Shown: one piece after another, positions 2 through 58,260 of the stretch
Position numbering within the stretch: the first letter of the stretch is position 1
Layout of the letters: each line of letters opens with the position of its first letter
DNA from: Cenococcum geophilum
Lineage: Eukaryota
Length of the DNA: 64,000 nt
Assembly (NCBI GenBank): GCA_050273025.1
Contig: CP158635.1
Location: 15,996,001 to 16,060,000, forward strand
Reading direction: 5' to 3'
Translations under genes and position numbers: made by a program
The notes under the pieces: generated by a model
The model's input: the letters and a program-made list of their open reading frames with translations, nothing else
What the model was told of the DNA's origin: nothing
The model's database searches: none

Positions 2-1471
2 GCTTCTAAACGGTCCCTTTCCTCCACAACCACCCTCTGGAGAGCCAACGAAATCGCAAATTCTGCTAGGCTGCTGCTCGAAGAGAATGCCATACTTTCG
101 GCCAAGAATTCTTTCATACGATGCAGTATAGGAGAACAGATTGATGCATTGGAGGCTGTCAGAAGAGGTATTGGATTGGTGGAAGCAGAGGTTAAAACGG
201 AGTTCAAGGTAAGCCCTGAATCACCATCCTCAAACTACCACCACCATCCCTACCCATATTTTACTTGGACCGGAGGATAGTTCTCAGAACCAGAGTGCTG
301 ACATGAGAAGAATCTCCTCCACTCCCTCGATACCTCTTTCAGCGGCCTTCAAACTACCCTCACAATTCTCCGCGACACACCAATAGAATCCGTCCTTCAG
401 CCCCCTAATACTCCACAAAAACACCTCTACGACTTCATTGACTCTGCCACTGTGACGAATCTAAAGGAGTCTCTGCGATCATGTATTGATCGTTACAATG
501 ACGCTCTCAATACTCTTCATGATAGCACCGACGCTTTCGATGAGTCTCTACAGTCCCTGCACATTGCCGCGACAAATTTACCAGCATCTCCGGCTACGAA
601 TTCAAGTCCGACACCACTACCAAGTCTATTCCGTGATCTTGAAATCCACGCTACAGAAGCAGCAACATGTTTCCAGTCCCTAGTTCGGCACTACGATCTC
701 TGCGTCACGGCTCTCAAGCACACAGAAGGAGGTGGAGAGGCTGCATCGCGCGCAACAGACGATATGCCTTCTGCTGAAGGCGGGGAAGGGGCAGGGGTTG
801 ATCTCTCACTCCAACAGTCCGCCTTCGCGGCACCTCCCGAGCCGCTTACAGAAGCAGAGCGGATCGACATGCTTGCTGTACTGCAAAAAGACGCCGTCGA
901 GGTAGACGACGTGGTAAACGAGATTCGCGAACGAGGCGCGGAAATGGAGTTTCTTCTCACGTCAATGTCGTCACACATCTCTCTGCTCCGAACCGAGCGG
1001 TCCGCTCTCCTCTCCATCCTCAGTGCGATAGAAAACATTGGTAAAGACACCCGTGTCTACATGTCCGCTGCCCGTGACTTCGTGGTTGCTTGGGACGCCG
1101 AACGCGCAAAGATCACGGAAGGTATTGAAGAGTGGAAGTCTCTCCGCGACTTCTACGAACGCTTTGATGAGGCCTATGCCAATCTGCTAGTTGAAGTTGG
1201 CGAGCGGCGCAGACGGCACGAGAAGGCGAAGCACAAGGCAAGAGAGTCGGAAAAGGAGTTGGAGGAGCTTTATCAAGAGGATGTTCAAGCCAGAGAGGCG
1301 TTCACACTTGCCCAAGGCGACTTTCTACCCTTAGACATATGGCCAAACCTCAGAGATCCACCACGTAGATATGAAATCGTGCCGATTGATAAGGAAGCGA
1401 GCGGGAGCATACCAGACGTTAAAAGAGAGGTGCTAGAAAGGGCGATGCAAAGATTGAGAGGAAGAATGTGA
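2..1471 (+). CDS. ATG17: Autophagy protein Atg17, 5' end outside window; intron 209-310
   Basis: Frame 2 reads ASKRSLSSTTTLWRANEIANSARLLLEE. A GTAAGC...GCTGAC...AG intron (209-310) joins it in frame to the 452-1471 ORF, which has Atg17-like motifs (SLVRHYDLCVTALKHTEGG, EVGERRRR, GDFLPLDIWP). Confidence 0.88.
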
Positions 1472-2082: not shown

Positions 2083-3813
2083 TCACTTCTTACGAGAGGA
2101 AGTGTTGATGAGCTTCTTCTTAAGGTACTTTGGCATCTTTGTCTTCCGCTTCTCACGCTTCTCTTCTTTGACGGCTTGTTTGTGCTCCTATTATCCAAAA
2201 TTAGCACGTTAAACTCTTAATGAATTCAAAACAAATGGATATCTGCCCACCTTTTTCGTGTCCTTATCCACAAACCTCTTTCCTCTCGGAGGGCCGGTCT
2301 TCTCAAACCTCTCTCCGGAGCCTTCTCCGTCATCACTACTGTCTTCTTCGCTTTCGTCAATCTCTACACCACCGTCTGAGATGGCCTTGGTCCCAACTAC
2401 CTTGTCAGCAAGTAAAGCCTGATAGACCAATCCCTCTCTATCTCCTTTTTTTACCATCTCCGCGTCGCGTTCGATATCGTATACTTGCTCGAGAGTCTGC
2501 GGAATGTACTGCTGTCTAAAGACCTCATTATCAAGTTCTTCTTGCCTCTTGTCCTCTTCTGTCTGTTTTTCTCCTTTCGCGTAAAGCTCCTCGACGGCTT
2601 GACTCATTCCTGTCATTTCCGTGCTCCCCTCCGTCTGAGTAATAAAGTTGAAGACAGTGCGTTCCCAAAGCGTATCCACGCTCCGATTGCGGAAGAAATC
2701 CGAGACATTCTTGACGTCCATACGCAAGAACTCTAGACTTCTTGGATGGTCATGCTCCACACTTTGACTGACATCGATAATCCAAAGCTTGTTCTCGTGA
2801 TACAGCAGATTATACTCGCTCAAATCCGCATGCACAAGCTTGCAGACCTGATAGATAACCCGCATGTAGCCCAACAGCTGCACATATAGCCCCTTCCATT
2901 TATCCTCCTCCTCTTGCGCCGTGAGCCCCTCAAACTTGACATCCCGCAACCTCGGCGCAGGCCAGCCCTTCTTGTCTCCCAAAAACCCCATGACGAGCAC
3001 GTGCAGCCGGAGGTATATTGGCTCTGGGCACGGAATCCCCGCGGCGTAGATCCGCTTCAGGTTCCGCATCTCTTTTTCCGCCCACACCTTCACCATCGCG
3101 CGGTTTGACGACTTGTTCCAGCCCTGCCGGAAGCGAAACTCGCCAGCCACATATTTTTCCCGGTCCTTGAAGACGAGGATGCTGGTTTTGTACACTTTTA
3201 TGGCGCGGTGGAGGGGCGTAGGGTCGGTTTCAGCTGCCACTCCTCCATCTGCCCCTTCAGATGGCTCGGGGATAGAAAGTGCGTGATACACGTTCGCCTC
3301 CTTGCCGGTTGAGAGGCAACCGTGGATCTCAGAGACGATGTTGCGGTTGATGAGCTGGAGGAGGATCATGCGGGTGCGTGGGTCGAGCACCTGCTCGGAC
3401 GTGGCACGGTCGCTCTTGTCCTTATCGGTTGCCTTGCCATGTCCTCCGCTTAGCCTGTCATCTAGCTTTATCTTCGCCGCATGTCGGGAGAGTGAGTGGA
3501 TCTGGTCGTCGACGGAGGCTTTGGTGTTGGCGGTTGGCTTTTGTGGGTGCGATTTTGGGAGCTGGGAGGCCGGGATGGTGGGGTCGTTCAACTTGTGTTG
3601 GCGATTGTAGGATTTGATGTAGTCGTTCGGGTTGGCTACCTCATTACTGCTGTCGTCGAATATGTCGTCCATGTCATCGTCATTTTCATCATCCTTGGCA
3701 GCTTCGGCATGAAAAGTTTCTAAATGGTTTGCGGGGTCTTGGGTCTTTTGAAATTCAAGGCTCAATGTACCATCAGAGGTGAGCTGTCCTGCCATGTCTT
3801 CTGGCTTGTCCAT
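2083..3813 (-). CDS. RIO1: Atypical Ser/Thr kinase Rio1; intron 2188-2250
   Basis: RIO motifs DRATSEQVLDPRT, STGKEANVY, IKVYKTSILVFKDR, LVHADLSEYN, IIDVSQSVEHDHP. A GTGGGC...GCTAA...TAG intron leads to the basic tail EHKQAVKEEKREKRKTKMPKYLKKKLINTSSRKK*. Start is ATG 3813 or 3795. Confidence 0.95.
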
Positions 3814-4313
3814 TTTGGTTGAGTTAGATATGAGAATGTGAGGTGTGGTGGTGATCGTGGTAGGCGAAATTATCATTGCTAGCAGAAAATCTCCAAGCGA
3901 AAGGACAGGGCGGCGAGCGAGCAATCAACGCAGACACAGATACATTGAACAGTGCGATGTTTGGCAAGGTGTCACTTGATCTATCAATAGAAATAAGCGC
4001 TCGGCAGTGGAAGATATCTGAGAAGGTTCCAATATTTTCAAATGCCTTCCCATGTCCCTTAACCCGTTGGAGTCCTACGCTAAGGTCGCTTAAGTTCACG
4101 ACTAGATGTCATTGGGTGTCTTTCGCTAATCCAGATACTTTAATTGGCTGATAATCATTGGACGAATTTCAACGGGTTAAGGTATAGACGAACAGCTATG
4201 CTAGAGCAAAGGCGAGATAGGGGAGTTTATAATACAAGAGTGGAGTATGAAGCCGCGAAGACATGCGAGCGTGTCTTCAGGATCATAGATGTCTAAAAAC
4301 CAAGGAAGCTTCG

Positions 4314-8976: not shown

Positions 8977-10001
8977 TTTTTAGCTAGAATCTCTATTATT
9001 TAGTTCGAATTGCGTTTTGCATACTCTTAGCCCCACATTTAGCTCAGCCTGCTCAAAACTCTCCTCTCAAATCTACGACCGTCTTAATCACAAGTATAAA
9101 TATTTACTCAAATTACATCTACTAACAGAGATGACTGGAAAATGTCAAAAGCCTTTGCTATTTCCGTGCCATGTTCTCGGGCCAGTATATATCTTAGATG
9201 CAAGGCTTATAGTAGCTAAACGCAATGAGAAGGGGGACCGGAAGCGGCAGAAGGCTGCTAGACGAGCCGTAAAGGCGGTTGCAAAGTCGCAATAAAGCAC
9301 TTCTACTAGATTTTTTAACTATATATTTTTAATATATACACGATTCGCCTTATACAATCTTCTCTTTTTAGCTAATTGCAGCCGAACTTCCTGTACGGAT
9401 TGCTAGGTAATTATACTTAAAAGATACAAACTATCGTTTATTTCATTGAGCCCAGAACTACTAGTAGAGTAAAAACTGGTTAGTACGATACGGTTTATAC
9501 GGCCGAGCGTATCGTTATACCAATGGTATTGTTATATAAAGAATTACTTGTTGGGTTAATAAGCAATAAAAAGGGGGGCTTTATACTTAAAAAGGCTTAA
9601 GGCTATAACGGAACCTTGTAGCAGGAACTACGGTGGGTTCTGTCAATGGGCTAGGTATATAGGTATTGCAAGTAAGTTAATAACGTAATAACAACTAGTG
9701 GAGTGGTTGCCTAACAGATTAACTCCAATTATATTCTAAGAATTACTATAAGGAAGGAACTATCTAGGTAGGGACTAAGGGTCCTTAAATACACAATTGT
9801 ACTCCTATAAAATCCTTCTTATACGTAATGTACGTGTTATACATGTTATACGTATATTCCCTTTATACACTTTATACACTGCGTACAATATTATATAACT
9901 TACTTACTATTCCTCGTTATATAGTTCTACCGGTTCTATACTAGACCGTGCCTATATTAACTAACTAGCTTCTTCTAACTCTTCTCTAAGTAGTCGTAAT
10001 A

Positions 10002-10453
10002 CGTCAGGAAAAAATTTAGCAGCATTTTGCCAGCATTTTTAGCATTTCGCAGCATTTAAAACAGACCATACGCATTAAGCAGCATCTAGGCAGCTATATA
10101 TATATATTATATATAAAATTTTTATTTTTAGATAGATAATTGGATATAGTATATTATATAATAATTTTTTTTATAAATTACTTATAAATTACGTAAGTTA
10201 TTCTACTTTTTTAAAAAAAATTAAAAAAAATTAAAACTTTTTTTAGAAGTAGAATAACTTACGTAATTTATAAGTAATTTATAAAAAAAATTATTATATA
10301 ATATACTATATCCAATTATCTATCTAAAAATAAAAATTTTATATATAATATATATATATAGCTGCCTAGATGCTGCTTAATGCGTATGGTCTGTTTTAAA
10401 TGCTACGAAATGCTAAAAATGCTGGCAAAATGCTGCTAAATTTTTTCCTGACG
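10002..10453. mobile_element. 452-bp foldback (palindromic) insertion inside the 3' LTR of copy A
   Basis: CGTCAGGAAAAAATTTAGCAGC...GCTGCTAAATTTTTTCCTGACG. Arms of ~207 bp are almost identical, with an ~40-bp A/T spacer. TA is duplicated at 10000-10001 and 10454-10455. The insert is absent from the sister LTR. Confidence 0.92.
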
Positions 10454-10586
10454 TATTATACTTAAAGCATTCGTAATACCATCTCCCTCCTCTTTATCTT
10501 TGTCCTTAAAGATTTCTAATATCTCTAAGTTATTTACTAGAGGTATAATGTCCGTCTAATTAATTTAGTTAATATTATTACTTATT

Positions 10587-11271
10587 ATACCTAAAGCATC
10601 TCTTTTTTTATAAGCGTAATGTTATGCTTATACTATTGCCGCCATATTGTTACTTAGTGAGATTATACCATCTCTGTGTTCTTATTGTGCAAAAAAGGGG
10701 TTAGTTTGCGTTGCGTTAGCGAGTCCTTTATTTTAGCAACCCTCTTTTTACTTAAAGTGTACTAAAGCGAATATTCGCTCCTTTTATAACGTTTGTTTAT
10801 CCTCTAACGCTAAGTATACGCGTCCTATAACTCTTAATAGTCGTTAAGTGCCCTAGTTAATTTGCCTTAGGGTTTTATATTTAATCTACTACTACGTATC
10901 TAGATGGTAATCTAGCGTAAGCCCTTGCTAAGCTTAAGCGTTCTTATAATGCGGAATAAAAGGCCCTAGATACTTATATCGCGGCGTCTACCTATCTTCT
11001 TTATTTTAAGAAAGTTTGTAAGAAGGTGCGTTTTAAGGAGTAGAAACTTATAGAATAAGGTTTATAGGAACTTAGCGATAAAAAAACAGATTCTCTTCTA
11101 ATAGAGAAGGAAATAACTCTAAGTAGTTTAGCAGTCGCTCTTTCTAGGTCCCCCTTAGGTGGCTTATTCTTTAGTGATCCTTCTTTATTAATACTACTTA
11201 ACCTTTTCTCTTCTAATACTCCTATACCTTTTCTATAGCGTTCTTTAGGTTTTCTAGTAGCTCTTAGGTAG
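10587..11271 (+). pseudogene. Antisense Zn-cluster-like plus coiled-coil gene of family 1 (copy A), one intron
   Basis: De-RIPed: MPKAS...GEIMPSPCSRCAKKGLVCVALASPSSRQPSSCSECTKANIRSSCDV..SDAE|W...coiled coil. Several Cys codons survive (TGT/TGC at ~10676-10760). The same layout is present in copies B, C and D. Confidence 0.75.
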
Positions 11272-14200
11272 TTTTATTATAGCCTATCCACTTTACTTTA
11301 TACTATATTTTATTATTAACGTCTTTATAACTAACGATCTTTAAAACTTACTATTTATCTTCTTCCTATCCTCTATATATGTCTGCTTTATAAACTAGTA
11401 GCTTAATATTCCTATATACTAGCTCTAGCATTGCGATATACTATATAGGGTAGATCTTTATTTTAGCTAGTAGGTTTAACTTATATATAATTAGTGAAAT
11501 TCTCTATATAATTTTAAAAGGTCTTAGTTTAACGTAGTCTAACTTCTTGCTTAGTCGTTAACTCTTAAAAATTTTATATAGTAGCTATACTTTATCCCCC
11601 TCCTTAAGATCTAATCCTTTAAATCTCTTAGCGTTATAGTACCTTTTTATTCTCTACTGTACCACCTTAGCTATTTCCGTAAGGTTTGTATAAAGATTTA
11701 TTAAATTCTCTATTCTTTACTTAGCTATACTACTTGTTTTCTTTACTTAACGTAGCGATAATAAGGTCCTTAGCTTATATCCGTAATTTACCTTAAATAG
11801 TGACGTTCCTATTCCTTCTTATAGTGTCGCATTATACGCGAATTATATAACTAGTAATAGCGATACCTAATTATTTTATGCGTAATTAATATAATGCCTT
11901 AGATACTGTTCTAGTATCTAGTTTAATCTTTCTATTTAACCGTCTGTCTATAAATAATATGTGGTAAAAGTTGCTGCTCTAACTCCTTATTCCGCTAAGA
12001 ATACCTCCTAGAATGCTACTATAAATCTTAAATCCCTATCTAATATAATTTTACTTAGTGCTCTATATCTTATAAACACTTCTTTAATATAGATTCTAGT
12101 AATATCTTCTACTAAGATTTCTTCCGTATATGCTATAAAGTATCCCTACTTTGTAAGCTTATCTACTATTACTAAGATCGCGTTATAATCTTGTCTAGTA
12201 ATAGGATTTTTTAACTTTAGTAACTTAATAATAAAGTCCTATAATATAACCTCCTATAGTCTTTCTAGTATTTTAACAGGTTATAGCCCTCTATACGGCT
12301 TATGCCTTATTAGTTTATTTCTTTAGCAATCTAGATATTCCTTTATAACTTTCCTTACTAATCCCTAGATTCCATTAATGATATACTTCTCTTAAAGTCT
12401 TAACACTAAGCCTGTAGCTCCATTATGTCCTTAAGTTATTCCCTTGTAAAAGTCTTCTATAAACTACTCTACTATACTTCTTAGGATGTACTTTACTTCT
12501 TAGTTTTTGTATGTCTATCTATAGGTCTTCTAGTTATGCCTCTAGAATTCTTTATACCTAAAAGCTTTTTAGTATCTTATAGACTCGTTTTAACTCTTCT
12601 TCTTAAGTTACTGCTAACTTTAGATAATTATACCTAATAAATCCATCCTTATCTTTGCGTAGCATTGCGCCTAATAGTTTTTCGTCGCTTTATAGTTTAG
12701 CCTTTCTACTTAGAGCATCTGCTTATGCATTTTTAGTACCCTTAGTATACTAAATCTCGAAATAGTATTCTGTAAGTATCTCTGCCTATCTAACTTATCT
12801 TTAATTAAGTTCTTTTATTATTAGGAACCCCGTTAGGTTCTTATAATCCGTCTTAACTATAAATAGTTTTTCTATGCCTTATAAGAATGCTCTTTATTTC
12901 TTAAGTGCTGTAACTATACCTAATAACTCCTTATTATAGATGTTATAGTTTAACTCTAGTAGTATTATCTTTTAACTATAGTATGCCACTAGGTGCTATC
13001 CATCTTTATATTTTTATAGGAAGCACGCTTCTAGTGCATAGTTTAATGCATCTGTCTTAACCACTATCTCTAACTTTAGTTGGTAGATTTTAAAAACTGG
13101 CTCCTAGGTAAACAACTGTTTAACTTCCTTAAATAGCTTCTTTTATTTATCTCCCTATACCTATAGTTCTTCTTTCTTTATTAGTCTTATAAACGGCTTA
13201 ATATCCTTTAACTATTAAGCTATAAACCTTCTACAGTAATTATAAAACCCTAAAAACGATTTTAACTATATAACGTTCTCTAATTCTTACTAATTTACTA
13301 TAGCCTTAATTTTTTTTAGATCTATACTAAGCTGGCCTAGTTTAATAATAAATTTAACGAAATCTGTCTTCCTAGTAAAGAACTCGCATTTCTTAATTGC
13401 TACTAGCATTTATTCCTCTTATAGTCTCTTTAAAACCCATTTAACGTATTCTCTATATTCTTCCTTATTTATTAAGTAGATAATAATATTACTAAGATAT
13501 ACTATAACAAATTCATTTAAGTGTTTTCTTAATATATTGTTAATACGCTTCTAGAACGTTACTAGTGCGTTTATAAGCCTAAATTGTATAACTAATAGTT
13601 TATATAGTCCTTCCTTAAACCTAAAGGCTGCCTTTTATTTATTGCCTTCCTTAATTCTAATCTAATGGTACGCCTATCTCAGATCTATCTTTATAAAGAT
13701 TTGCGTATTACTAATCCTATCTTAGATTTTACTAATTAAGGGTAAAGGATACCTATCCTTCCTAGTAATACTGTTTAACTGTTTATAGTTAATGCATAGC
13801 CTAAGTTTTCTATTCTTCTTTAGTACGAACAGTACTAAATAACCTGCTAATAATTATAATGGTCTAATATATCCCTTTTAAAGATTTTCCTAAACAAACT
13901 CTTTAAGTGCCTATAACTCTTTCTCTATAAGCTTATAGGTTAAAAAGAACCTTAGACTTATTTCTGGTTCTAACTCTATCTTATAGTCCTATGCTATATA
14001 TTCTAACAGCTTTTTACTTTCTAGTAACCATAGCTTTTTACTATACTTATGGTATCTCTTTAGTATATAACTTAATCCCTAATTAGTCTTTTTATATATC
14101 GCTCTAACTTAGTACTATACTAACTTGGTTTATTATTACATCTTATAGTATTAAGTATCCCTAATATCGACCTAACCTGTAACCTAATTAATCTTTAGAT

Positions 14201-17200
14201 TATATTCCTATAGCTAAGGCATCCCTAATACTGCCTTATTATTTCCTAATAGTAATATATTAAAAGACATCTTAATTCGTCTTCCCTTAATAACTAACTA
14301 AATAGGTCTTATTTTAAGATTAATAATACCTCCTCCGTAGGCTATTGGATCTCCTAAAATTGTAACTAATAGATAAGGGTGCTCCTTTTATCTATATAGT
14401 AGCCCCATCCGTTTTACTACTGCTAGTAAGATATGGTTCCTTATTACTCTACTATCTACTAATACTTTAAACTGCTGATCTTGCTAATTAACTTGTAGAT
14501 TTAGGTGTCGTCCTTAAATTCCTTTAAGGGTTTAAGGCTCTACTACTGGCTCCCTCTAGTCCCGTAGGCCTCTACTTTTCCCAACTATTAGCTACTAGAT
14601 CCTATTTATACTTAGTCTACTTTTAGCTAATACTTAGTTTGTTTCTTTTTTTTAATATGCCATAGATAGGTGTTCTCTAAATATTTCCACTATTATCGTC
14701 TATCTAGGCATTCTTCCGTAAGGAATCTTCCTGGTTAAAGTATTAAGTCTCCTAACTTCTAAATTTTTACTAGATACCAGCTGTGTATATACTTAGCATT
14801 CCTATACTATCGCTTATCTAGCGCCTAATATATTCTTATAGGGTATTTCCGATTCTTTTCCTTCGGATTCCTATATATTTTACATATATTATTTACGCAT
14901 ACAATCCATAATAGCGTATAGTGTGCTAGGTGCTTTAGGTTAACTCTTAACTTATTTTTATTCTTAAGTTTAAACCTTTACCGTGTTAATCTAAACATTA
15001 TGACTTCGTTTATAGGTACTAAAACGCGTCTTTTACTCCTCTAGTCCTCTAATTATTCCTTTAAATCTTTTAACGTTATAATTAAGGCTCCCTTAATATA
15101 ATTTATTGCTTTTTCCGTAATTAGGTGGTCTTAGATAACTCTTTCGTCCAACTATATATAGAAATCTTCCTACTTATTATTGTGCCTTTACCTATACCAC
15201 TTTTAGTATAGCTGCTAGAGTATATACGGCTTATCCGTAAGGAAGTATCTTCTTATTACTGCGTTATAACAGCCCTTTATATGTCGTTCTTTAAACCTAG
15301 TTAGAATCCCTAGATCCTCTTTATTTTCTAGTTCGGTAAGCTACTTAGCTCTTAGTGTGCCTGTTCTCGGCCTATTAGTGATTCTTTATATAGGTGCTCT
15401 GTCCCTTATATAGCCTAGTGTGCTAGATCTTATATCTAGTTTCTATTCTTGCCCTAAATTCTATTATGGTTTCTTTTACTTTTCGCCTTATAAGTAAATC
15501 CTTAAAGTTATCTTACTTCTTAACCTTAGTATTAAACTTTCGATCTTTAGTCTAAACACCTTATTTAACTAGTAAGTCCTTTAGGTCTATATATCTGTCT
15601 TCTAATTTAACTGCTGTTTATACTATAGATTCCCTAATTTATAGCGAAGCTTTTTGCTTCTTACTTATGGGTATCCTTATTTATACTCCGAATTCTTAGT
15701 CCCTTAGATTCTTTAATCCTAAGCTCGCTTCTTTCTTAAGCTGCGCTCTAGCCTTAGTCTAACTAGGCTTGGGTGTTCTTATCTTATCTTAAGAGTCTTA
15801 AATCTTACTTATCTTATCTTAAGAGTTTTATGCCTTTAGGAAACTTCGTCCTGAGCTTATTTATATATTACTAAACTAAGCCGTTGCTCTGCTCTATTGG
15901 TTATCGTCTATTATAGGTCCTTAAGCTTGCCTTATCTCGTCTTAAGAATCTTAAGCCTTTGGCCTTTTGCCTTTATTAAGTGGTAAGCTAGCACTAGCAG
16001 TCGTCTGCTTGCTTAATTATCTCTAGATATTACTCCTTCTATCTTATAAAGCGATGGATGCCGTATCTAATGGTGTTATAATACCCGTTACTAAACCTTG
16101 CTCTATGGCGGTCTCAGTCTCTACCTTTGTTGCGTCTTTAAGGTTTGGATACCCCTAGTTAGTTCCTTTATCTTCCTTGGCGCTATTAATTAATAAGTAC
16201 TCTAATTTTATTGTTATTGTTACTAATTATTGTCCGTATATTACTATAATATCTTAATCTAGCTTATAGAGTTAATCTTTTTCTTTATCTAACTCTTTGG
16301 TTCCTTTAAGTCCTCTTAACTCTGGCTCTTATGGCTAATAGCTTACGCCGTACTTAGCGTTTTTATAAATTCGGCATGCGTTATTATAATAAAACGCGAA
16401 ACTTTAGATTAAACATTCTTTTGTTCCTTATAGTATACTATTATCCCTCTATATATGTGTGTTGTCTACTAGTCTAGTTCCTTTTATTATATAGTAACTC
16501 TAACTATCTTTGCAATCCCTAATAAAATAACCTTATTTTCCGCAATTTATATAAGCTCCGTCTTTAAACCATTAACTTTGTTATAGAGTTTACCTAAACG
16601 TCTTCTGCTATTAAGATCCCTAGTTTAGCCTATACTTCTTAGTCCTATAATTACTTAATCCTTAACCTCTAAGTTTCCATAGTTTCTTATTCCATCTCTT
16701 ATGGTTTTTTTTAGTACCGCTTAGGTCTATTAGCTCTACGCTATACTATAGTTTTTAACTTGGCTTTAGTTGTTGCGTACTTTACGTCCTATATAACTAT
16801 AGAACTCTGTCCTAACCTCTTTTAGTCTATTCCCTTTAGAAGATCCTGTTATTAATCTTAATCGCTTAATTAATTAATTCCCTTAGGGTGTCCGCATCTT
16901 CTATTAGAATAATTACGTCCTGGACTTTAGCCTTAAGTCCCTGTTTGTACTGTACTATAAGCGCCTTATTATTCCACTTAACCTATATTACTAGTATTTG
17001 GAACTACGTTATATACTTAATTACTAAGGTTCGCTGCGTAATGTCTTAGAGTTTTCTTTCCGCTGTGGTCGTCGCCTCTAGGTCTCCAAATATTTATATA
17101 AGTCGTTCTATAAATCCGTTCTAGCTTAAAAACATAAACCATACCTCTTAGTTTATAGTTGTTATCCCGTTTGCTTGTATCTCTATAAGGTAAGGCTTAA

Positions 17201-18355
17201 ACTATTTAAGTACTCTTTCTAATAAGAACAATCCTACGTACGCTATTTAATCCATAGGTGTCGCCAGCTTTGCTCCCTCTTGCGTAACCTTAAAGTGCAT
17301 TTATATAAGGAATCCTTTAAGCTTTAATCTCTCTCCTAAGAATCTTTTAATTAATAGTAACTTAACCTTTACTACACCTATCCCGTTAATCCTATTTTTA
17401 AGTACCGCATTATTTTCCGTTAACTAGTTAACTATCTCTTGTAACTGTCTAACCGTTACTAATTGCTATAAGTTAGTATCTGCTATACTAGTATCGTTTC
17501 CTAATCTTAAGGTAGTTGCTGCCGTCGATAGCATTATAGTGGCTGCTTTTGGTGGCATGTTATTTAACTTATTGAAACCGTAACTGTGGTAGTAATTATA
17601 TAACGGAACCTTGTAGTAGGAACTACGGTAGGTTCTATTAATGGGCTAGGTATATAGGTATTGCAAGTAAGTTAACAACGTAATAATAACTAGTAGAGTA
17701 GTTGCCTAATAGATTAACTCTAATTATATTCTAAGAATTACTACAAGAAAGGAACTATCTAGGTAGGGACTAAGGGTCCTTAAATACACAACTATACTCC
17801 TATAAAATCCTTCTTATACGTAATATACATGTTATACATGTTATACGTACGTTCCCTTTATATACTTTGTACACTGCGTATAATATTATATAACTCGCTT
17901 ACCATTCCTCGTCATATGGTTCTACCGGTTCCATACTGGACCGTACCCGTATTAACTAACTAGCTTCTTCCGACTCTTCTCCAAGTAGTCGTAACATTGT
18001 ACTTAAAGCGTTTGTAACAAAGGCGTCTACCTTACCGGCTAAATTAGGCTCCCTCCCATATAAAATCTCTACTAGTTATACCGATTTTAGTAGGGGAGAC
18101 TTAACGATATCATTAAAAGTTAGAATATCGTAATATTATACCAAAAACACTTTAATTAAGAGGTGTAGATCGTAATATAGAGTATATCGTTGTAATCAGA
18201 TATTGTACTAACCAGTTTTTACTGTAGTAGCAATCTACAAGCTTCGTCTTAAAGGCATTTATATAAGTCCGTTATACCTAGCGGGCCTAGTCTTTATAGC
18301 TTTAATTACTAGCGTTTAAAGGCCTTATATTTTAACTAGAAGCCCCTTTAGCTAC

Positions 18356-21289: not shown

Positions 21290-24200
21290 TACAGCTGCTG
21301 AGCGCACGGGCCCCCCGTCGTCGTAATTGTGACTTAGCCGCTAATTTAGCCATATAAACGTAACTATGGATATACTATTGCTATTTTTGGTCCATACATA
21401 ATATCTATCTAAGTATTATTAAAATACGAGCTTAATAGCCCGATCCGCTACCTATAGACGTTCGTAATCTAGCCTTATTAATCTAGCTAACCCGACAGCT
21501 CTTATTATGCATCTAAACGTCGCACAACTAGCTACGCTAGTCTGAAGATACATTTATAGCGAATATAATTGTATAAGAAATTCCATCTTCCGGGGGACTT
21601 TAGCCTGCACCTCTATAGTATGTCGAGCAGATAATAAAGCACTACTAGATAATCTGGAGAGCCTCCGCCTGCGTCAACTGCGCCAGAACTATTCTTTTAA
21701 TTGGGGCAATTCTCTAATAGCAGCTGCTTCAGCCGCAGTGTACCCAAGTATCGTTTAATGGCCCCAATATACCTACCAAGAGGGCTTAATACGGTGCAAG
21801 TCAATACTTCTTTGCATATTCGGCCGTTAGGCCTTTTTAAGGCCTTTGGCTCTATAGATCCCTTTATATAGTATTTAGCACTTTTTGTATAGGGCGCTTT
21901 GGGCGCTTCTACTTGGGTTAGCATGCTGCAGGTATTCTAGCTAGTGTGGTTTTATTAGCAAGCCCCACCAAAACACCTTAATATTGCGATGCCGATAAAA
22001 TGCTACCTAAGGCCACCACCACAAATACACTAAATATATTTTTAAGGAAGTTGGGCAAGAAGTCGTGATATAATATTATAACTATACGTTCTTATCCTTC
22101 CTCCATTAACCAGCTGCTAATTATATAGAAAAAGCCTTTAGAGTCCTCCCCTAAATCCTTACTACCTATATACTTTATATATATTCTTAACGTTAATAAG
22201 AATAAGCTAGTGGAGGATTAGCTTAAGGTTATAAGGGAGGACGTATTATATACATTAAATAAGGTGGATTAGATACTATAGGTAATTAAACGGTTTAATT
22301 AGCAATTATTTAGTATAGAGGCGCGTTTAAAGGCAGTAGAGGAGGGCTTAAGGATAAACGCTGTAGTAAAAGCTTAATTAGCTTTAGAGTCTCAATATTA
22401 GAGACATAAGGAAGTAGAGAATTAAAAATAGTTACCTAATTGTCGCCTACTAAATGAAAGTTGTTAAAGCACTATAGGCATAGAGGAAGCCTATAAACTT
22501 CGCATTTATATACTGTTCGCTTTATCTTTACTATAAGCTTCCTTATATATTTTCATCTATACATCTAGCACGTTAGTAAGCTCTTATGGCCTTGCTTCTT
22601 TATATAGCTATTAATATAGCGGTAAGTTTATGTTTTACATCGTTAAATTATAGGTAGTAGGGTTTTGGCAGTAATGTAGGTGTTTATTTAATTTGTTTTA
22701 TTTCTATAACTAGACCTAATACCAGGTTTATATTGCCCGTAATTTAGTAATATTAAATAAAAAAACGCTTAGTATTTTCCTTATTTAGGCCCGTTTGCCG
22801 GCTATCTATAATAACAAGATTCCATATTAATTATACGCGGAAGTATTAATAGGTTTAAAGGAAGGGCTTACTTAATGTTTAGAAGATCTTCTTACTAATA
22901 ATATAGGCGTTAATTATAGCTATATTAAGCGCCTAGAGGAATAAGGGTATCTAGGTATAAATAGTGGTAATTTAGGTAGTATAGTAGCTTTAAAGTTAAT
23001 TATAGATATTAACACCGCCTATTTAGTTATTATAGTCAATAGAGAGCCTAGGAAGCGTTAACTTCTTAATTAGATTATTACCCTAAATATTAGCTACTAG
23101 CTTCTTAAGAAAGGAATTATATCCTTGCGGCCGGCGCTAATTAACTTTATTAATATCCTTATCGCCGTAAAAGTAAGCTATCATTAAAAACCGTACTAAA
23201 TTCTTATCTTACCATATAATTAAAAGCACTAGATTAGCTGCGCTAACAACTACTTCTATAATAAAGTTAAACGGTAACCTTGCCTTCCTTTTATTAGCCC
23301 TTTTATATACCTCTAAATAGTCCTTTAAGTTTAATTAAGCTATACTAGCTATAGTAATTCCAAGTTATTAAAGCACCTAGAGCAACGGAATATTTATAAA
23401 GTAGTTATCTAAAAATAGGCAGAATCGACGGGCCTAAAGAGGAAGCTACTAAGTAAGGTAGAGGATATACTTAGAGGTCTTTAAGAGGACAATATCTTAG
23501 TAATCTATTTAAGTAGGAAGCCTAAAAAAGCAGCCAGGTAAGGTAAATATAAAGCTATAGCAAAATTATAAGAGGTTAGTCTAACCGGAACGTATAATTA
23601 TCTAATTAATAGAATAGAATAAGAGTTATAGGTAAGTAGAAGATAAGTTAAGGTAAAATAAGCTTTATATAATAAAGGATAAATGCTTTTTAACCTCTTT
23701 TATTTAGAGACTAATTGCTAGTTATAACGAAGCCTTGTAGCAGGAACTACGGTAGACTTGTTAATGGGCCGGGTATATAGGTAAACAAGAAAGTCAACAA
23801 CGTAATAATAACTAGTGGAGTGGTTGCCTAACAGATTAACTCTAATTATATTCTAAGATTCACTATAAGGAAAGAACTATCTTAGTAGGGACTATAGTCC
23901 TTTAAATATACAACTATACTCCTAAGAAATCCTCCTTATATATAATATACGTAGGGTATATAAGGTATATAAGTTCCTTATGTTCCTCTTGTTTAGTATA
24001 TAGCATATTATATAACCTTAGTTACCATTCCTCATTACACGGCTTAATCGGTTCTATTCTAGACTATACCTATATTAACTAACTAGCTTCCTCTAACTCC
24101 TCTCCTAGTAGTTATAATATCGTGCTTAAAGCGTTCGTAATACTATCTCCCTTCTCTTTATCTTTGTCCTTAAAGATTTCTAATATCTCTAAGTTATCTA

Positions 24201-26294
24201 CTAGAGGTGTAATATCCGTCTAATTAATTTAGTTAATATTATTACTTATTATACCTAAAGCCTCTTCTTCTTTATACGCGCAACGCTGTACCCGCACTAT
24301 TACTATAATATTATTGCTTAGTGAAATAATACTATCTCCGTATTCTCGTTATACGAAAGAGGGGTTAGTTTATATTACGCTAGCGAGCCCTTTATCTTGG
24401 TAACCCTCTTCCTATTTAAAGTGCACTAAGGCGAACGTTCGGTCCTCTTTGTTACGGACGCTTTAAGTACGATATTACAACTACTTAGAGAGGAGTCGGA
24501 AGAAGCTAGTTAGTTAATATAAGCACGGTCCAGGATGGAGCCCGTGGAACCATATGACGAGGAATAGTAAGCAGAGTCACATAATATAATCTATATAATC
24601 TGTATAATCTGCGAGATCTGCAATAAAGCGAACAGAGCAGGCAGAGTAGATAGAGCAACGACTTTCTTAAGAGTACGGTTATATATTTAAGGACCCTTAG
24701 TCCCTACCTAGATAGTTCCTTTCTCGTAGTAATTCTCAGAATATAATTAAAGTTAATCTATTAGGCAACCACTCCGCCAGTTATTATTACGTTATTAACT
24801 TATCTGTATATCTATATACCTAGCCCATTAACAGAACCCACTATAGTACTTACTACAAGGTTCCGTTATATAATTACTACCATAGTTACGGTTCAATAAG
24901 TTAAACAACATACCACCAAAAGCAGCCACTATAACGCCATTAACGGCGGCAACTACTTCGAGATTAGGTAATGACACTAGTATAGCAGACACTAACTTAC
25001 AATAACCTATAACAGTAGGACAGTTATAAGAGATAGTTAACTAGTTAACGGAAAATAATATAATACTTAAAAATAGGATTAATGGAATAGGTGCAGTAAA
25101 GATTAAGCTACTATTAATTAAGAGATTCTTAGGAAAGAGATTAAAGTTTAAAGGATTCCTTACGTAAATGTATTTTAAGGTTTTATAAGAAGGAGCTAAG
25201 CTACTAACACCTATAGATTAAGTAGCGTATACAGGATTGTTCTTATTAGGAAGAGCACTTAAATAGTTTAAGCCTTACCTTATAGAGATATAAGTAAATA
25301 GAATAACAACTATAAACTAAGAAGTACGGTTTATATTCTTAAGCTAAAGCGGATTTGCGGAGCGACTTATATAAATATTCGGAGATCTAAAGGCAACAAC
25401 TATAGCGGAAAGAAAACTCTAAGACATTATATAATAAACCTTAGCAATTAAGTATATAACGCAGTTTTAGACGCTAGTAATATAAGTTAAGTAAAATAAT
25501 AAGGCGCTTATAGTATAGTATAAATAGGGACTTAAGGCTAAAGTCTAGGATGTAATTATTTTAATAGAAGATACGGACACCCTAAGGGAATTAATTAATT
25601 AAGCGATTAAGATTAATAATAGGATCTTCCAAAGGGAATAGACTAAAAAAGGTTAGGATAGAGTTTTATAGTCGTATAAGGCGCAGAGTACGCAATAACT
25701 AAAGCTAAGTTAGAAAATATAGTATAGCGTAGAGCTAATAGACCTAAGTAGTACTAAAGAAACCTATAAAAGATGGAGTAAGAAACTATAGAAACCCAGA
25801 GGTTAAGGATTAAGTAATTATAGGACTAGGGAGTGTTACGGACGCTTTAAGTACAATGTTATAACTACTAGGAGAGGAGTTAAAAGAAGCTAGTTGGTTA
25901 ATATAGGTACGGTCCAGAATAGAACTGGTAGAACTATGTAACAAGGAATGGTAACCAAGGTTATATAACGTGCTACGTATTAAACAAGAGGAATAAGAGG
26001 AACTTACGTACCTTATATATAACATATATATTACGTACAAGAAGGATTTTATAGGAGTACAATTGTGTATTTAAGGACCCTTAGTCCCTACCTAGATAGT
26101 TCCTTCTTTATAGTAATTCTTAGAATACAATTAGAGTTAATCTGTTAGGCAACTACTCCACTAGTTATTATTACGTTGTTAACTTACTTGCAATACCTAT
26201 ACACTTAGCCCATTAACAGGACCCACCGTAGTTCTTGCTACAAGGTTCCGTTACACAATTACTACCTAGTTACGGTTTTAATAAGTTAAACAAC

Positions 26295-39722: not shown

Positions 39723-42428
39723 AATAAGTAATAATATTAACTAAATTAATTAGACGGATATTATACCTCTAGTAAATAACCTAAAGATGCTAGGAATCTT
39801 TGAGGACGAAGATAAAAAGGAGGGAGATAGTGTTATAGACGCTTTAAGTATAATGTTATAACTACTTAGAGAGGAGTTAGAAGAAGCTAGTTAGTTAATA
39901 TAAGTACGGTTTAGAATAGAGCCCGTAAAACTATATAATAAGGAATAGTAAGTAGAGTTATATAATATAATCTATATAATCTATATAATCTATAAGATCT
40001 ATAATAAAGTAAATAGAGTAGGCAGAGCAGACAGAGTAACGACTTTCTTAGAAGTATGGTTATGTATTTAAGGACCCTTAGTCCCTACCTAGATAGTTCC
40101 TTTTTTATAGTAATTCTTAGAATATAATTAGAGTTAATCTATTAGGCAACCACTCCGCCAGTTATTATTACGTTATTGACTTATCTGCATACCTATATAC
40201 CTAGCCCATTGACAGAACCTACTATAGTACTTACTACAAGGTTCCGTTACACTCTTATAACATTTATTCTACCTCTAACGCTAAGTATACGCGTCCTATT
40301 ACTCTTAGTAGTCTTTAAGTTCCCTAAGTAATTTATTATAGGGTCTTATATTTAGTCTACGGCTATAAAGCTTAATAGTAACCTAGCGTAGGCTCTTATA
40401 ATACGGAGTAAAAGGCCCTAAATACTCGCATCGCGGCGTCCACTTAGTTACTTCATCTTAAGAAGGTTTATAAAAAGGTGCGCTCTAAGGAGTAAAAACT
40501 TATAAAATAAGGTTTGTAGAAACTTAGTAATAAAAAAACGGATTCTCTTTTAACTAAGAAGAAAATAAATCCAAGTAGTTCAGCAACTACTCTTCTTAGG
40601 TCCCCCTTAGGTAACTTATTCTTTAGCAATCCTTTTTTATTAATACTGCCTAACCTAATCTCTTCTAATACTCCTATACCTTTCTTATAGCATTCTTTAG
40701 GTTCCCTAGTGGTTCCTAGGTAGTCTTATTATAGTTTATCCACTTAACCTTATACTATATTTTATTGTTAATATCCTTATAACTAACGATCTTTAAAACT
40801 TGCTATTTATCTTCTTCTTATCCTCTATACGTGTCTACCTTATAAACTAGTGGCTTAATATTCCCGTATGCTAGCTTTAGTATTACAATATATTATATAG
40901 GGTAGATCTTTATTTTAGCTAGTAGGTTTAACTTAAATATAACTAGTGAAATTCTTTATATAATTTTAAAAGGTCCTAGTCTAACGTAGTCTAACTTTTT
41001 ACTTAGTCGTTAACTTTTAAAAATTTTGTGTAGTAGCTATACTTTGTCCCCCTCCTTAAGATCTAGTCCCTTAGATCTCTTAGTATTATAATACTTTCTT
41101 ATTCTTTCTTATATATTTTTCGCTAATTCTATAAGGTCTATATAAAGATTTATTAATATATTTATCCTTTCTTTAGCTATGCTACTCGTTTTCTTCGCTT
41201 ATTATAGTAATAATGATATTCTTAGCTTATATCTATAATTTGCCTTAAATAGTAATATACCTATTCCTTCTTATAGTGTTACATTATATATAAACTATAT
41301 AACTAGTAATAACGATACCCAATTATTCTATATATAATTAATATAATGTCTTAGATACTGTTCTAGCGTCTAATTTAATCTTTCCGTTTAACTATCCGTT
41401 TGCGGATAATATGCGGTAAAAGTTACTACTCTTACTCCCTACTCTACTAAGAATACTTCCCAGAATACTATTATAAATCTTAAATCTCTATCCGATATAA
41501 TCTTATTTAGTGCTTTATATCTTATAAACACTTCTTTAATATAGATTTTAGTGATATCTTCTACTAAGATTTCTTCTATATATGCTATAAAGTAGCCCTA
41601 TTTAGTTAACTTATCTACTATTACTAAAATTATATTATGCTTTTATCTAGTAATAGGATCTCTTAACTTTAGTAACTTAATAATAAAGTCCTATAATATA
41701 ACCTCCTATAGTCTTTCTGGTATTTTAATAGGTTATAGCCCTCCGTATAGCTTATACCTTATTAGTTTATTTCTTTAGCAATCTAAATACTCCTTTATTA
41801 CTTTTCTAGCTATACCCTAGATTCCGTTAATAATATATTCTTCCTAAAGTCTTAATACTAAGCCTGTTGCTTTATTATGTCCTTAGGTTATTCCCTTATA
41901 GAAATCTTCCATAAAATACTCTACGATGCTTTTTAGGATGTACTTTGTTCCTTAATTTATATATATATATATATCTATAGATCTTTTAGCTATACTTTTA
42001 GAATTCTTTATACCTAAAAGCTCTCTAGTGTCTTATAGACTTTTTCTAGTTCGTTACCCTCTTAAGTTGCTGCTAGCTTAGGGTAATTATATTTAATAAA
42101 TCTATCCTTATCTTTACGTAGTATTGCTCCTAATGGCTTCTCGTTGTTCTATAGTTTAGCCTTTCTACTAAGTGTATCTACCCTTGCATTCTTAGTTCCC
42201 TTAGTATACTAAATTTCGAAATAGTATTCTATAAGTATCTCTACCTATCTAACCTATCTATAATTAAGTTTCTTTAGTTATTAGAAACCCCATTAGGTTC
42301 TTATAATCCGTTTTAACTATAAATAGTTTCTCTACGCCTTATAAGAATACTCTCTATTTTTTAAGTACTGTAACTATACCTAATAACTCCTTATTATAGA
42401 TATTATAGTTTAACTCTAGTAGTGTTAT

Positions 42429-51321: not shown

Positions 51322-52347
51322 GTTATTTTCCAACTATAGTATGCCACTAAATGCTATATATTCTTATACTTCTATAGTAAACATACTCCTAATATAAAGT
51401 CTAATATATCTATTTCTATAACCGTGTCTAGTTCTAGTTAGTAGATTTTAAGGATTGGCTTCTAGGTAAATAACTCCTTAAGTTCCTTAAATAACTTTTT
51501 TTACTTATCTCCCTATACCTATAGTTCCTCTTTCTTTATAAGCCTAGTAAAAGGTTTAATATTCTTTAACTATTATACTATAAACCTCCTATAGTAGTTA
51601 CAAAACCCTAGAAATAACCTTAACTGCGTTATATTCTCTAGTTCTTACTAACTCATTATAGCTTTAATTTTCTTTAGGTCTATACTAATATAACCTAGTT
51701 TAATAATAAATCTAACGAAATCTGTTTTTTAATAAAGAACTTACATTTTTTAATTACTACTAGTATTTATTCTTCTTATAGTCTCTTTAAGACCCATTTA
51801 ACGTGTTCCCTATATTCTTCCTTAGTTATTAAGTAGATAATAATGTCGTTAAGGTATACTATAATAAACTCATTAAGGTATTCTCCTAATATACTATTAA
51901 TTCGTTTTTAAAACATTGCCGGTGTATTTATTAATCCAAACTATATTACCAATAGTTTATATAGTCCTTCTTTTAATCTAAAAGCTGCCTTTTATTTATC
52001 GCCTTCCTTAATTCTAATCTAATGGTACACCTATCTTAGATCTATCTTTATAAAGATTTATATATTACCTATCCTATCTTAGATTTCACTAATTAAGGGT
52101 AAAGAATACCTATCCTTTTAAGTGATGCTATTTAACTATCTATAGTTAATATATAGCCTAAGTTTTCCGTTCTTCTTTAGTACGAACAGTACTGGATATC
52201 CTACTAATAACTGCAATAGTCTAATATATCCCTTTTATAAGTTCTCCTAAATAAACTCTTTAAGTGCTCTTAACTCCTCTTAAGTAAGCTTATAGGTTAA
52301 AAAGAACCTTAGACTTATTCCTAGTTCTAACTCTATCTTATAGTCCT

Positions 52348-55300: not shown

Positions 55301-58260
55301 CAAAAGGAGATAAATGGCTTACTGCATTTCGTACTCGGTATAGACTATTTAAATATTTAGTAACGCCATTTGGCCTCGTAAACGCTCTAAGCTTGTTTTA
55401 ACATTATATAAATAACACCCTACGCCCCTACCTGGATATCTTCTGTACTGCTTATATTAACGATATCTTAATATATAGTAATAACCTGACTAAATATTGG
55501 AAATACGTTAATTTTGTCCTATAAGCCCTGCACGGAGCTAGTTTATAATTAGATGTAGATAAATGCGAGTTCTATAAAACGGAAGTCCTATACCTTAAAC
55601 TCCTTATTTCTATAAACAGTATATAAATGGACCTAAAGAAAGTTAAAGTAATTATAAACTGGTAAGAACCTAAGAACGTTAAGGACGTAAGAGCCTTTAT
55701 AGGATTTACTAATTTCTACTAACAGTTTATTGATAACTTCTCTGCCTTAGTTTTACCCCTTATAGCTCTAACCCAAAAGGATAAAGTCTTTGTCTTTAAT
55801 AAGGAATGTAAGAAGGCCTTTACCTATCTAAAGATTATGTTTACTACTGCGCCCATGCTCTAACACTTTGACCTAAACCGAATAAGTGTTATAGAAGCCA
55901 ACTTATCTAACTATGTTACTAGAGGCATCCTGTCTTAATATAACGAGGATAGAGTATTGCACCCTATAGCATACTTCTTAAAATGACTAAGCCTAGCCGA
56001 ATGTAACTATAAGATCTACGATAAGGAATTATTAACTATTATTAGATATTTTAAACAATAGCGACCTAAACTAGAAGGCGCTGGATTTCTAATTAAGGTC
56101 CTTAGCGACTATAAGAACCTACAGTACTTTACAACCACAAAACAGCTAAGTCATTATTAGGCCCGCTGGTTAGAATATCTGTCTTATTTCTAATTCTTAA
56201 TTACGTACCGCCTAGGCGTCTAAGGCTAGAAGCCTAATGCTCTAACTTGACGCTCGCAAGACGCGCCAGCCTTAGAAGAAGCGCGCTCTTACCAAAATTA
56301 GACCCTACTTCGCCCTAAACTATTTAACCCTTCTACTAAAGATCTTACGGTATACGTCCTTAAAATAACTGATTAATTGATTAAACAGATTATAGTTAAT
56401 AAATACCTAAATAACGAGTTTATTTAAGAGACACTTAAGCTAATGTAAGATGGCATTAGACGCTCTAAAAAGATTTCTCTAAATAAATATAAAGCCTATA
56501 AAAACCGCTTATATTACTGGAACCATCTAGTTATCCCTAATTATAATAAGCTTAAGCTTAAACTCCTTAAACACGTATATGATCTACCTGTTGCCGGCTA
56601 CCCGGGCCAAAAAAAGACCCTAGAACTACTTTAATGGGAGTATTATTAGCCGAATATGCATAATATAATATAAAGGTACGTCTCTAGCTGCCACACCTAT
56701 TAATAAGCTAAAGCCTCGCATGAGACGTATAACGGTCTTTTAAAGCCGCTGCCTGTTCTAAACTAAAGATGGAGGGATATCTTAATTAACTTTGTTGTTA
56801 ACCTTCCTAAGAGTAGAGGCTGCACGAATATTATAGTAGTTGTAGACCGACTATCTAAAATAAAACACTTAATCGCCTGCCCTAATATATTAACGCCTGC
56901 TATTGCCTAACTATTTTTAGATTACGTATAGAAACTCTACGGACTCCCTAAAATGATTATCTCTAATAAAAACAGCCAGTTTATCTTAGTATTCTGGAAA
57001 AAACTAACTACTTAACTCCGTATTAAAGTACTGTTGTCTACCGCGTATTACCTAAAAACGGATAACTAAACGGAACGCGTAAATGCTATAATGGAATAGT
57101 ATATTTAGATATACACGTCGTATTTATAGGATAATTGGATTAACTAGCTTGTATTCGCCAAGTTTACTATAAATAACTCCGTCTCGGAAACTATAAAAGT
57201 CTCCCCGTTCCTAGCTAATTACGGCTAGTACCCACAAATGGGTTTTAAACCCTTTAGTAATATTCCTTACCCCGCTTATCACGCCTTATAAATTGTAGAA
57301 GCAAATAAATTTGTAGAGAAGATAGAGGAACTATAACAGTTCCTTACTAATAAGATAATATGGGCTTAATCTGTCTATAAAGCCGCAGCGAATAAGAAAT
57401 AAACCCTAGCACTGGCTTACTAAATTAGTAATTTTGTCTGGCTAGATATAAGAAATCTAAACATAAAACAACCTACTAAGAAACTTAATTAGAAGAACGC
57501 TGGCCCTTATAAGGTTAAAAAGGTTATCTCTCCTTATACCTACCAATTAAAGCTCCCTAATACGGTTAAAATCCACCCCATATTCTATACGTCAGTCCTC
57601 CGCCCTACTACCCCCATATTAAACGCCCTGCCTAGATAGATATAAGACCCTCCCCTACTAGTTGAAGTGGATGGTGAGAATAAGTACTTTATTAAAAGAA
57701 TTGATAATATTAAGTACGATAAACGGAAACGCTAATATATATATCTTATAAAATGGAGAGGCTTTACTAAGTCCTTATGGGAACCCGTTAACTCTATAGG
57801 ACTTATATAAGCCGCAGAAGACTTTTATAAACTCTACCTAGAACTACCATAGCCCTATCTCGCAGAAGCTTAAGTTTAAAGGGGGGGTACTGTTACGGGA
57901 TACCCCTATAACACCTTACACACGTCCACCTGTTTCCACTAACTTAGCAATTAGAGACTAACTGCGAAATGGCAATCTAATGGCAATATAATAGCAATCT
58001 AACGGTAATCTACGGCATTCTGCTATATTCTGCCAAGTTCCACTAAATTCTACTAAGTTCTGCTAGGACTACGACCTGAACCCTATTCTGCCTATATACG
58101 TGTTAACTAAGCAACTAAGTTAACAATATATGCCCTTTCTTCCCGTTTCCCTACCTTCTTTCCTTACGCAACGTCTTAACTTTATCACGCAGTTTATATA
58201 TATAGCTTAATAATACCTACTTCGCTATATATTATCACCGCTTATGCTTACTCCGTGACA
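52348..58260 (+). mobile_element. Ty3/Gypsy chromovirus family 3, copy F, 5913 bp, inserted in pol of B
   Basis: 370-bp LTRs 52348-52717 and 57891-58260. TSD GTCCT at 52343-52347 and 58261-58265. CCHC knuckle ~53711-53758, KKPGGSL.FC.DYRALN ~55130, YIDD ~55453, chromodomain ~57680-57840, G-rich PPT 57879-57887. Confidence 0.95.

Follow-up and report, generated by a model that had tools for sequence, protein, structure and literature searches.

The question raised by this locus is whether a reading frame that lies between pol and the 3' long terminal repeat (LTR) of a Ty3/Gypsy retrotransposon in Cenococcum geophilum, on the strand opposite to pol, is a genuine gene, and what its product might do. 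The window, meaning the whole stretch of DNA that was analysed, comprises 64,000 nucleotides (nt) of contig CP158635.1 (assembly GCA_050273025.1, positions 15,996,001 to 16,060,000 of the forward strand) and holds four copies (A, B, C and D) of a single Ty3/Gypsy family, which carry the marks of repeat-induced point mutation (RIP). An earlier note on this DNA had described such a frame in all four copies and read it as an intron-containing gene for a DNA-binding regulator, with a cluster resembling Zn2Cys6, or for an anti-silencing factor. The observation itself was confirmed and its interpretation was, overall, partly supported. It is well supported that the four frames are RIP-inactivated copies of a genuine accessory gene belonging to one lineage of ascomycete Ty3/Gypsy chromoviruses. 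The best explanation as a whole, a genuine antisense gene with one intron and six cysteines that was killed by RIP in the window, is given a probability of about 0.8.

Anatomy of the antisense gene

The gene start string was found exactly four times in the window, at 10587 (+), 24251 (+), 33099 (-) and 39722 (-), and is followed in every copy by the same two-exon frame on the strand opposite to pol. In copy A pol lies on the minus strand and the frame on the plus strand; the frame is therefore antisense. It begins approximately 110 nt inside the boundary of polypurine tract and 3' LTR, heads toward pol, and occupies the interval from there to the end of pol that encodes the chromodomain. Searches of the window by tblastn with two largely unbroken relatives, P0153 and P0155, recovered exons 1 and 2 of every copy, each in its expected frame, with E-values of ~1e-15 to 1e-20 (A, D and C) and of 4e-4 to 2e-8 (the pieces of B). 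The other matches in the window were short leader matches just upstream of each start and one stray match (E 7.8). The presence of the frame between pol and the 3' LTR of all four copies, as first described, is thus confirmed.

In copy A the exon 1 relic (10587-10815, plus strand) has ATA for ATG at 10587-10589 and three premature stops, and its six-Cys motif (10677-10787) now reads C,C,C,Y,C,Y. The intron relic (10816-10870, plus strand) is of 55 nt and phase 1, with the donor GT now AT and the acceptor AG intact. The exon 2 relic (10871-11238, plus strand) encodes a long helix, an acidic stretch and a conserved ..TP.PF. end, interrupted by six premature stops, and closes with a conserved TAG at 11236-11238. 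The relatives P0153, P0154, P0156 and P0159 all finish in ..TP[VI][PS]FP at the point where the four window copies have TAG, so the gene of copy A ends at 11238 and not at 11271; the start positions given earlier were correct, the 3' end was not. The last 32 nt of the gene (11207-11238) overlap, on the other strand, the end of pol that encodes the chromodomain, and an overlap of ~32 nt was also seen in the relative L001, in agreement with the earlier description of an acidic tail that runs into the end of pol. This opposite-strand overlap with a chromodomain-coding end is a point of interest in itself.

Copy D (33099-32448, minus strand; exon 1 33099-32871, intron 32870-32816, exon 2 32815-32448) has eight premature stops, and copy C (39722-39050, minus strand; exon 1 39722-39494, intron 39493-39439, exon 2 39438-39050) has nine, with an exon 2 that is longer by 21 nt; both share the ATA start and the AT donor. 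Copy B is divided on the plus strand. The first part of its exon 1 (24251-24449) is cut by a nested insertion, and the rest of the gene (40257-40690) comprises the end of exon 1 (40257-40286), the intron (40287-40341) and an exon 2 (40342-40690) that bears a 19-nt frameshifting deletion. When spliced conceptually, copies A and D each give a product of 198 residues, and copy C one of 205. The start codon has changed from ATG to ATA, and the splice donor from GT to AT, in all four copies. The gene is dead in the window, since start and donor are lost in every copy, A, D and C have eight or nine stops each, and B is split and frameshifted.

Relatives and the constrained strand

An initial protein search with the four exon 1 translations, in which stops were written as X, yielded two mutated relatives. 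A profile built from the four window copies and these two relatives was then searched against 1.84 billion representatives, with 242 proteins recovered at E<=1e-3, of which 146 reached E<=1e-10. Positions 1-89 of the profile represent untranslated upstream sequence, so that some of the matches reflect conservation of DNA only. Nearly all of the matches were short, RIP-damaged reading frames. Three relatives were largely unbroken, namely P0081 and, found through it, P0153 (239 residues) and P0155 (152 residues, starting MPPK). The latter two read through the predicted exon junction (..SVSDAEW followed by SRV..) and match the reconstruction almost residue for residue; intact relatives, which the earlier note had proposed to look for, were in this way obtained in largely unbroken form. 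The stops of the window copies align mostly with Q, W or R of the intact relatives, with one at a variable position. Of 161 retrieved proteins, 121 could be aligned over the Cys segment; at the six Cys positions these have 726 residues, of which 709 were either C (316) or Y (393). A change from Cys to Tyr (TGY to TAY) is a RIP change.

Hundreds of short "proteins" in public sets are frames of the antisense gene wrecked by RIP (P0001-P0152), and some of these database frames continue upstream across the complement of the polypurine tract (..SPSSLSLSLK..). For annotation this means that many short "hypothetical proteins" of RIP-affected fungal genomes, those that match this family, are the remains of a single transposon gene.

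Metagenome contigs were scanned with a three-protein alignment, which identified 27 loci that carry the antisense gene. In 23 of these loci the 3' end of the gene is abutted or overlapped by the end of pol that encodes the chromodomain, on the other strand; three of the remaining four are cut by the end of the contig and one runs off into unrelated DNA. In a protein atlas the closest clusters were from Ascomycota at 0.87-0.91, Ascomycota being the commonest phylum among the nearest clusters, and a cluster bearing DUF3716 appeared only at 0.77. With 242 cluster representatives, and with Ascomycota commonest among its nearest atlas clusters, the gene family is widespread in this phylum.

The intron occupies an identical codon (E, then a TGG codon split after its T) in 24 of the 25 locus copies that hold both exons. 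The intron measures 55 nt, as in the window, in 18 copies; the others have 64 nt (one copy), 127 nt (three) or 130 nt (two). All of these lengths exceed a multiple of three by one, so the unspliced frame is always broken and removal of the intron always restores it, as had been claimed for the 55-nt phase-1 intron of the window. The phase-1 position of the putative splice site follows from this comparison. The acceptor AG is kept in all 24 copies; the donor is GT in 11 and the RIP-type AT in the other 13, as in the four window copies. The donor G is preceded by T, which places it in a RIP context. Donors that survive in the relatives include GTGCGC, GTGCGT and GTACGT, and the less mutated relatives of the window's subfamily indicate that its ancestral donor was probably GTGCGC rather than the GTACGC proposed earlier.

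Introns placed antisense to the genomic RNA are passed on by reverse transcription. The intron of this gene is kept through retrotransposition because it is antisense to the genomic RNA, so that splicing of that RNA cannot remove it, and the family offers a clean natural case of a retroelement intron retained through antisense placement. In locus L002, the source of P0081, an in-frame deletion at ~1240-1265 has taken most of the intron together with the first bases of exon 2, and the gene reads through as one exon (..SDAECTFHVRS..).

The strand under constraint was assessed by counting transversion columns at each codon position in an alignment of 30 sequences, RIP making no transversions. In exon 1 the counts at positions 1, 2 and 3 of the antisense frame were 24, 13 and 44 of 72 each (chi-square p=4e-7), and in the conserved part of exon 2 they were 25, 22 and 40 of 84 each (p=0.007). 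The third position of the pol-tail frame corresponds to position 2 of the antisense frame, where no enrichment of transversions was observed. Neither the variable middle of the helix nor the intron showed a codon-position pattern. The sense frame is interrupted inside the intron interval, and because none of the four intron lengths is divisible by three, a sense frame could not stay open through every subfamily. By the pattern of transversions, the frame under constraint is more likely that of the antisense gene.

Several observations weigh against the reading of a genuine gene. In single window copies the neighbouring frames hold about as many stops as the gene frame, and a RIP-corrected reading of the four copies leaves the sense-strand frame open for ~125 codons over exon 2; because of these stops and this open sense frame, the window alone could not settle whether the gene is real, and it was the relatives that could. 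The pol open reading frame (ORF) of L001 (1194-1856, minus strand) continues ~130 codons beyond the chromodomain, across all of exon 2, which makes it fair to suspect a mirror image of sense-strand coding. The controls for the transversion count were weak, with 11, 17 and 26 of ~77 columns each in the chromodomain part of pol and no periodicity in the C-terminal part of the integrase (60, 49 and 50 of 104). L001, the least mutated locus, is frameshifted in exon 2, with its pol broken as well, and no fully intact DNA copy was present among the 27 loci. P0153 and P0155 are known as proteins alone, and may be spliced models, contigs derived from complementary DNA or intronless copies.

The product and its possible role

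The intact relatives are of ~200-220 residues, and comprise a basic N-terminus, a hydrophobic stretch, the six-Cys motif, a helix of ~100 residues, an acidic stretch and a conserved hydrophobic-acidic end. The Cys motif reads C-x2-C-x6-C-x13-C-x2-C-x8-C in P0153, P0155 and L001 (spacing 2/6/13/2/8), so the x5 previously given for the second spacer is corrected to x6. The long helix includes a very conserved segment (..RLEKVREKVRSKE..), and the C-terminal end has the form ..FSMLPD..TPVPFP. AlphaFold2 modelled residues 98-199 of P0153 as one helix, with a predicted local distance difference test (pLDDT) score of 94-98 over residues 101-190. Six ancestral cysteines followed by a long helix, as the earlier note had it, were accordingly found. 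A homodimer prediction for residues 50-200 of P0153 with zinc scored 0.38, against 0.42 for the control. The combination of six cysteines, long helix and acidic tail is a motif that suggests direct experiments.

Zn2Cys6 domains range in spacing over C-x2-C-x6-C-x5-12-C-x2-C-x6-8-C, and the observed motif departs from this in the middle spacer only, by one residue (13 against 5-12). Gal4-type domains typically have a run of basic residues between Cys 2 and Cys 3, where the relatives have just one or two. The domain searches also count on the opposing side. No Pfam family reached its cut-off; the hidden Markov model for Zn_clus (PF00172), through which membership of the Zn2Cys6 family had been expected to be recognised, scored a maximum of 15.0 bits against a cut-off of 21, and that for DUF3716 (PF12511) 15.4 bits against 22. 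At E<=1, Zn_clus matched 2 of 36 members (best E 0.073) and DUF3716 one of the 36. The DUF3716 match of 15.4 bits (E 0.018) was obtained in P0157 and in exon 1 of L003, two of 10 sequences, and covers profile positions 3-59 of 59. Half-domain matches in Pfam scored 13-15 bits. For the four window copies alone, Pfam returned no Zn_clus and just a stray C6_DPF (E 0.022). The Cys region itself was modelled at low confidence, with a pLDDT of 56-69 in the full AlphaFold2 model and of below 50 when the domain was folded alone, a model with a mean pLDDT of 56.

The family profile matched nothing in the PDB at E<=10. The best match of a single sequence was to PPR1 (1pyi) at E 0.56, and paired the first Cys triad with the second of PPR1. 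Locally this match aligns ..PSCSRCAKEGLVCV.. with ..PSCKRCAKLEVPCV.. and is not significant at that E-value. In P0155, the first Cys triad with its flanks (residues 30-45, ..MPSCSRCAKEGLVCV..) is similar to the second rather than the first half of a Gal4-type cluster (PPR1 ..FPSCKRCAKLEVPCV..), again at E 0.56. The PPR1 alignment, although not significant, hints at a permuted or half-derived zinc cluster. As the Pfam scores lie below cut-off and the PPR1 alignment is off by a triad, the domain is called Zn2Cys6-like by its spacing and is not placed in the family. It has in common with Gal4-type Zn2Cys6 proteins (PF00172; PPR1, PDB 1pyi) the six cysteines, the two C-x2-C-x6/8-C triads and the long helix and acidic tail that follow, and differs from them in a score below the Pfam cut-off in every sequence tested, a 13-residue linker, a second spacer with few basic residues and the mispairing of triads.

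As a first guess, the product would regulate the expression of the element itself. An antisense promoter in or beside the 3' LTR would drive the gene, with a leader that must cross the polypurine tract, and the product would be a zinc-binding nuclear protein resembling a miniature Gal4-type factor in its metal-cluster domain, long helix and acidic tail. This proposal as a whole is tentative. A narrower version, in which a spliced antisense mRNA starting in the 3' LTR would encode a sequence-specific, Gal4-like zinc-cluster factor, its binuclear cluster permuted or derived, that binds and controls the element's own LTR, is unlikely as it stands. If it were true, an element-encoded Gal4-like factor would parallel, in fungi, HBZ and similar antisense or accessory regulators of retroviruses, and may be the founder of a wider transposon-borne Cys6 class that includes DUF3716.

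A role without DNA binding is nearly as likely as self-regulation, though doubtful in its own right. On this reading the protein is real but is no DNA-binding regulator, being instead a zinc-binding adaptor that would act on proteins or RNA, possibly in integration targeting with the chromodomain integrase, particle assembly, nuclear import or the countering of host silencing. The sub-threshold Zn_clus scores, the scarcity of basic residues at the place where Gal4-type domains have a basic run, and the overlap of the gene end with the chromodomain are all consistent with an adaptor, and the products of some plant antisense ORFs (aORFs) are described as nuclear, without a reported function, in passages of a review (PMC7264820). 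The order of Cys cluster, long helix and acidic-hydrophobic tail is that of small fungal activators and would speak against an adaptor, as a resemblance rather than as a test.

It is improbable that the gene is a passenger, an old captured piece of a host zinc-cluster gene that performs no service for the element. The likeness of the first Cys triad and its flanks to the second half of a host Zn2Cys6 domain (PPR1, E 0.56) and the half-domain matches in Pfam would suit such an origin. Against this, the gene was found in each of the four window copies and wherever a relative allowed the check (23 of the 27 loci), across subfamilies whose proteins are only 50-60% identical, with transversions enriched at third positions and near-invariant Cys positions, whereas one-off captures are normally limited to one or few copies according to the same review (PMC7264820). 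More improbable still is that the antisense RNA is the functional part, through double-stranded RNA or copy-number control, with the ORF incidental. Regulatory antisense transcripts are discussed for several retrotransposons in sections of PMC7264820, but constraint at the protein level, seen in the codon-position pattern, the conserved start and stop and the C or Y at nearly all of the counted Cys positions, argues against a role of the RNA alone; an RNA role could exist alongside the protein. A mirror image of sense-strand pol coding, or a frame opened by lenient reading of RIP stops, was considered and is scarcely credible, being largely refuted by the unbroken proteins in databases, the sense frame broken in the intron interval, intron lengths that are never multiples of three, and transversions that fall at antisense and not at pol-tail third positions.

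It has been known for decades that LTR retrotransposons can carry additional antisense genes at their 3' end. The antisense six-Cys gene stands outside the gag-pol set, as the earlier note had stated; it does not stand outside known models, as that note had also held. The closest known case is brtn of the Boty elements, likened here by position and orientation. brtn was reportedly described by Zhao et al. in 2011 (Virology 417:248). According to passages that cite this study, brtn lies antisense between pol and the 3' LTR of the fungal Boty element (PMC7264820, PMC8365987), and the Boty brtn study is further cited in PMC4227169 and PMC5987419. A passage of the latter records a Monilinia transcript that matches a truncated Pol plus BRTN (PMC5987419), which fits an overlap with pol like that of the window gene. 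Shared with brtn, as these passages present it, are a fungal chromodomain Gypsy element as carrier, an extra gene between pol and the 3' LTR, the opposite strand and presence in the copies of the family. The available supplements of PMC8365987 contain no mention of brtn.

Passages of the review also describe antisense ORFs between pol and the 3' LTR in plants, namely gene23 of maize Grande and those of rice RIRE2 and Silene Retand, and state that no such antisense extra gene has an established function (PMC7264820). Like genes of the aORF-3R/brtn kind, the gene has the end of pol on one side and the 3' LTR on the other, is opposite to gag-pol and is present in all or most copies. With the plant aORFs of Grande, RIRE2 and Retand it shares, by the same passages, position, orientation, conservation across copies and, for some, a suggested nuclear protein; it differs in kingdom, and the plant proteins are described there as without clear similarity to any protein and with no zinc-cluster-like motif reported (PMC7264820). 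The literature searches returned no description of a six-Cys or zinc-cluster antisense gene in fungal LTR elements. In a survey of fungal LTR elements (PMC3248453) the words antisense, accessory and zinc were absent.

Two further systems invite comparison. Two DUF3716 proteins, REP9-1 and REP9-2, are described in passages of PMC8232023 as cargo of a class II transposon in Zymoseptoria tritici. The resemblance lies in a Cys-rich fungal domain of ~60 residues on a transposon-borne accessory gene; the difference lies in the sub-threshold matches obtained here and in the DNA transposon on which the REP9 genes are described as sitting (PMC8232023). The window gene is also comparable in layout to HBZ, as an antisense gene at the 3' end, here with predicted splicing, that would combine a module of nucleic-acid-binding type with a long helix, and is without sequence relation to it. 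HBZ of human T-cell leukaemia virus (HTLV) type 1 is a basic leucine zipper protein of a vertebrate retrovirus, encoded by an antisense, spliced gene at the 3' end of the retroelement. The antisense promoter of HTLV is located in the 3' LTR according to a passage of PMC7264820. The window itself contributes dead copies only, with a well-resolved anatomy, and is a solid but modest addition to the known antisense extra genes.

Carrier elements and surroundings

The carrier is a Ty3/Gypsy chromovirus, with reverse transcriptase, RNase H and integrase in Gypsy order and a C-terminal chromodomain. In copy A, pol was matched by RVT_1 (4e-14) and RT_RNaseH (8e-20), and weakly by Integrase_H2C2 and SH3_Tf2-1. 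The chromodomain-coding end of pol (11207-11347, minus strand) scored 16.4 bits for Chromo in this RIPed copy, against 41.9 bits in L001. The whole of copy A spans 9604-18019, with pol on the minus strand, LTRs of 421 nt and a 5-bp target duplication, GCCTT, that flanks the element outside its LTR. The 5' LTR (17599-18019, minus strand) measures 421 nt and the 3' LTR (9604-10001 and 10453-10478, minus strand, a span of 9604-10478) is broken by a palindrome. The polypurine tract, read from sequence at 10479-10501 (minus strand), stands directly beside the 3' LTR and 86-108 nt upstream of the start of the antisense gene; being just upstream of that start, it forms part of the leader or promoter region of the gene.

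Copies D and C are arranged head to tail over ~25.8-40.2 kb. Copy B is in four pieces (23723-24449, 40252-42428, 51323-52347 and 58260-62102), separated by three nested insertions, the first of which contains copies D and C and further LTR-related pieces. A 5-bp duplication, CTCTT, is present at both edges of the first break.

Differences between element copies are for the most part transitions; copies A and D differ by 154 transitions and 35 transversions over 1094 aligned bases. RIP indices in the elements were 1.6-1.9 for TpA/ApT and 0.45-0.51 for (CpA+TpG)/(ApC+GpT). The AT-rich repeat nest extends from ~9.6 kb on, with strong RIP signatures, and the G+C content falls from 0.49 at 6-8 kb to 0.42 at 8-10 kb and ~0.29 at 10-12 kb. 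The block of host DNA at the start of the window has a normal G+C content of ~0.49-0.50 and a TpA/ApT of 0.8, and includes a gene with an ATG17-like domain (764-1471, plus strand, E 3e-35) and a gene with a RIO1 kinase domain (2209-3876, minus strand, E 2e-67).

The palindrome within the 3' LTR of copy A (9997-10458) is near-perfect, ~460 nt in length and 26 nt from the inner edge of the LTR. Its arms of ~215 nt are 96% self-complementary, with a predicted DNA fold of -232 kcal/mol (z = -44). It is missing from the other three copies of the family and may be a foldback insertion or one resembling a miniature inverted-repeat transposable element.

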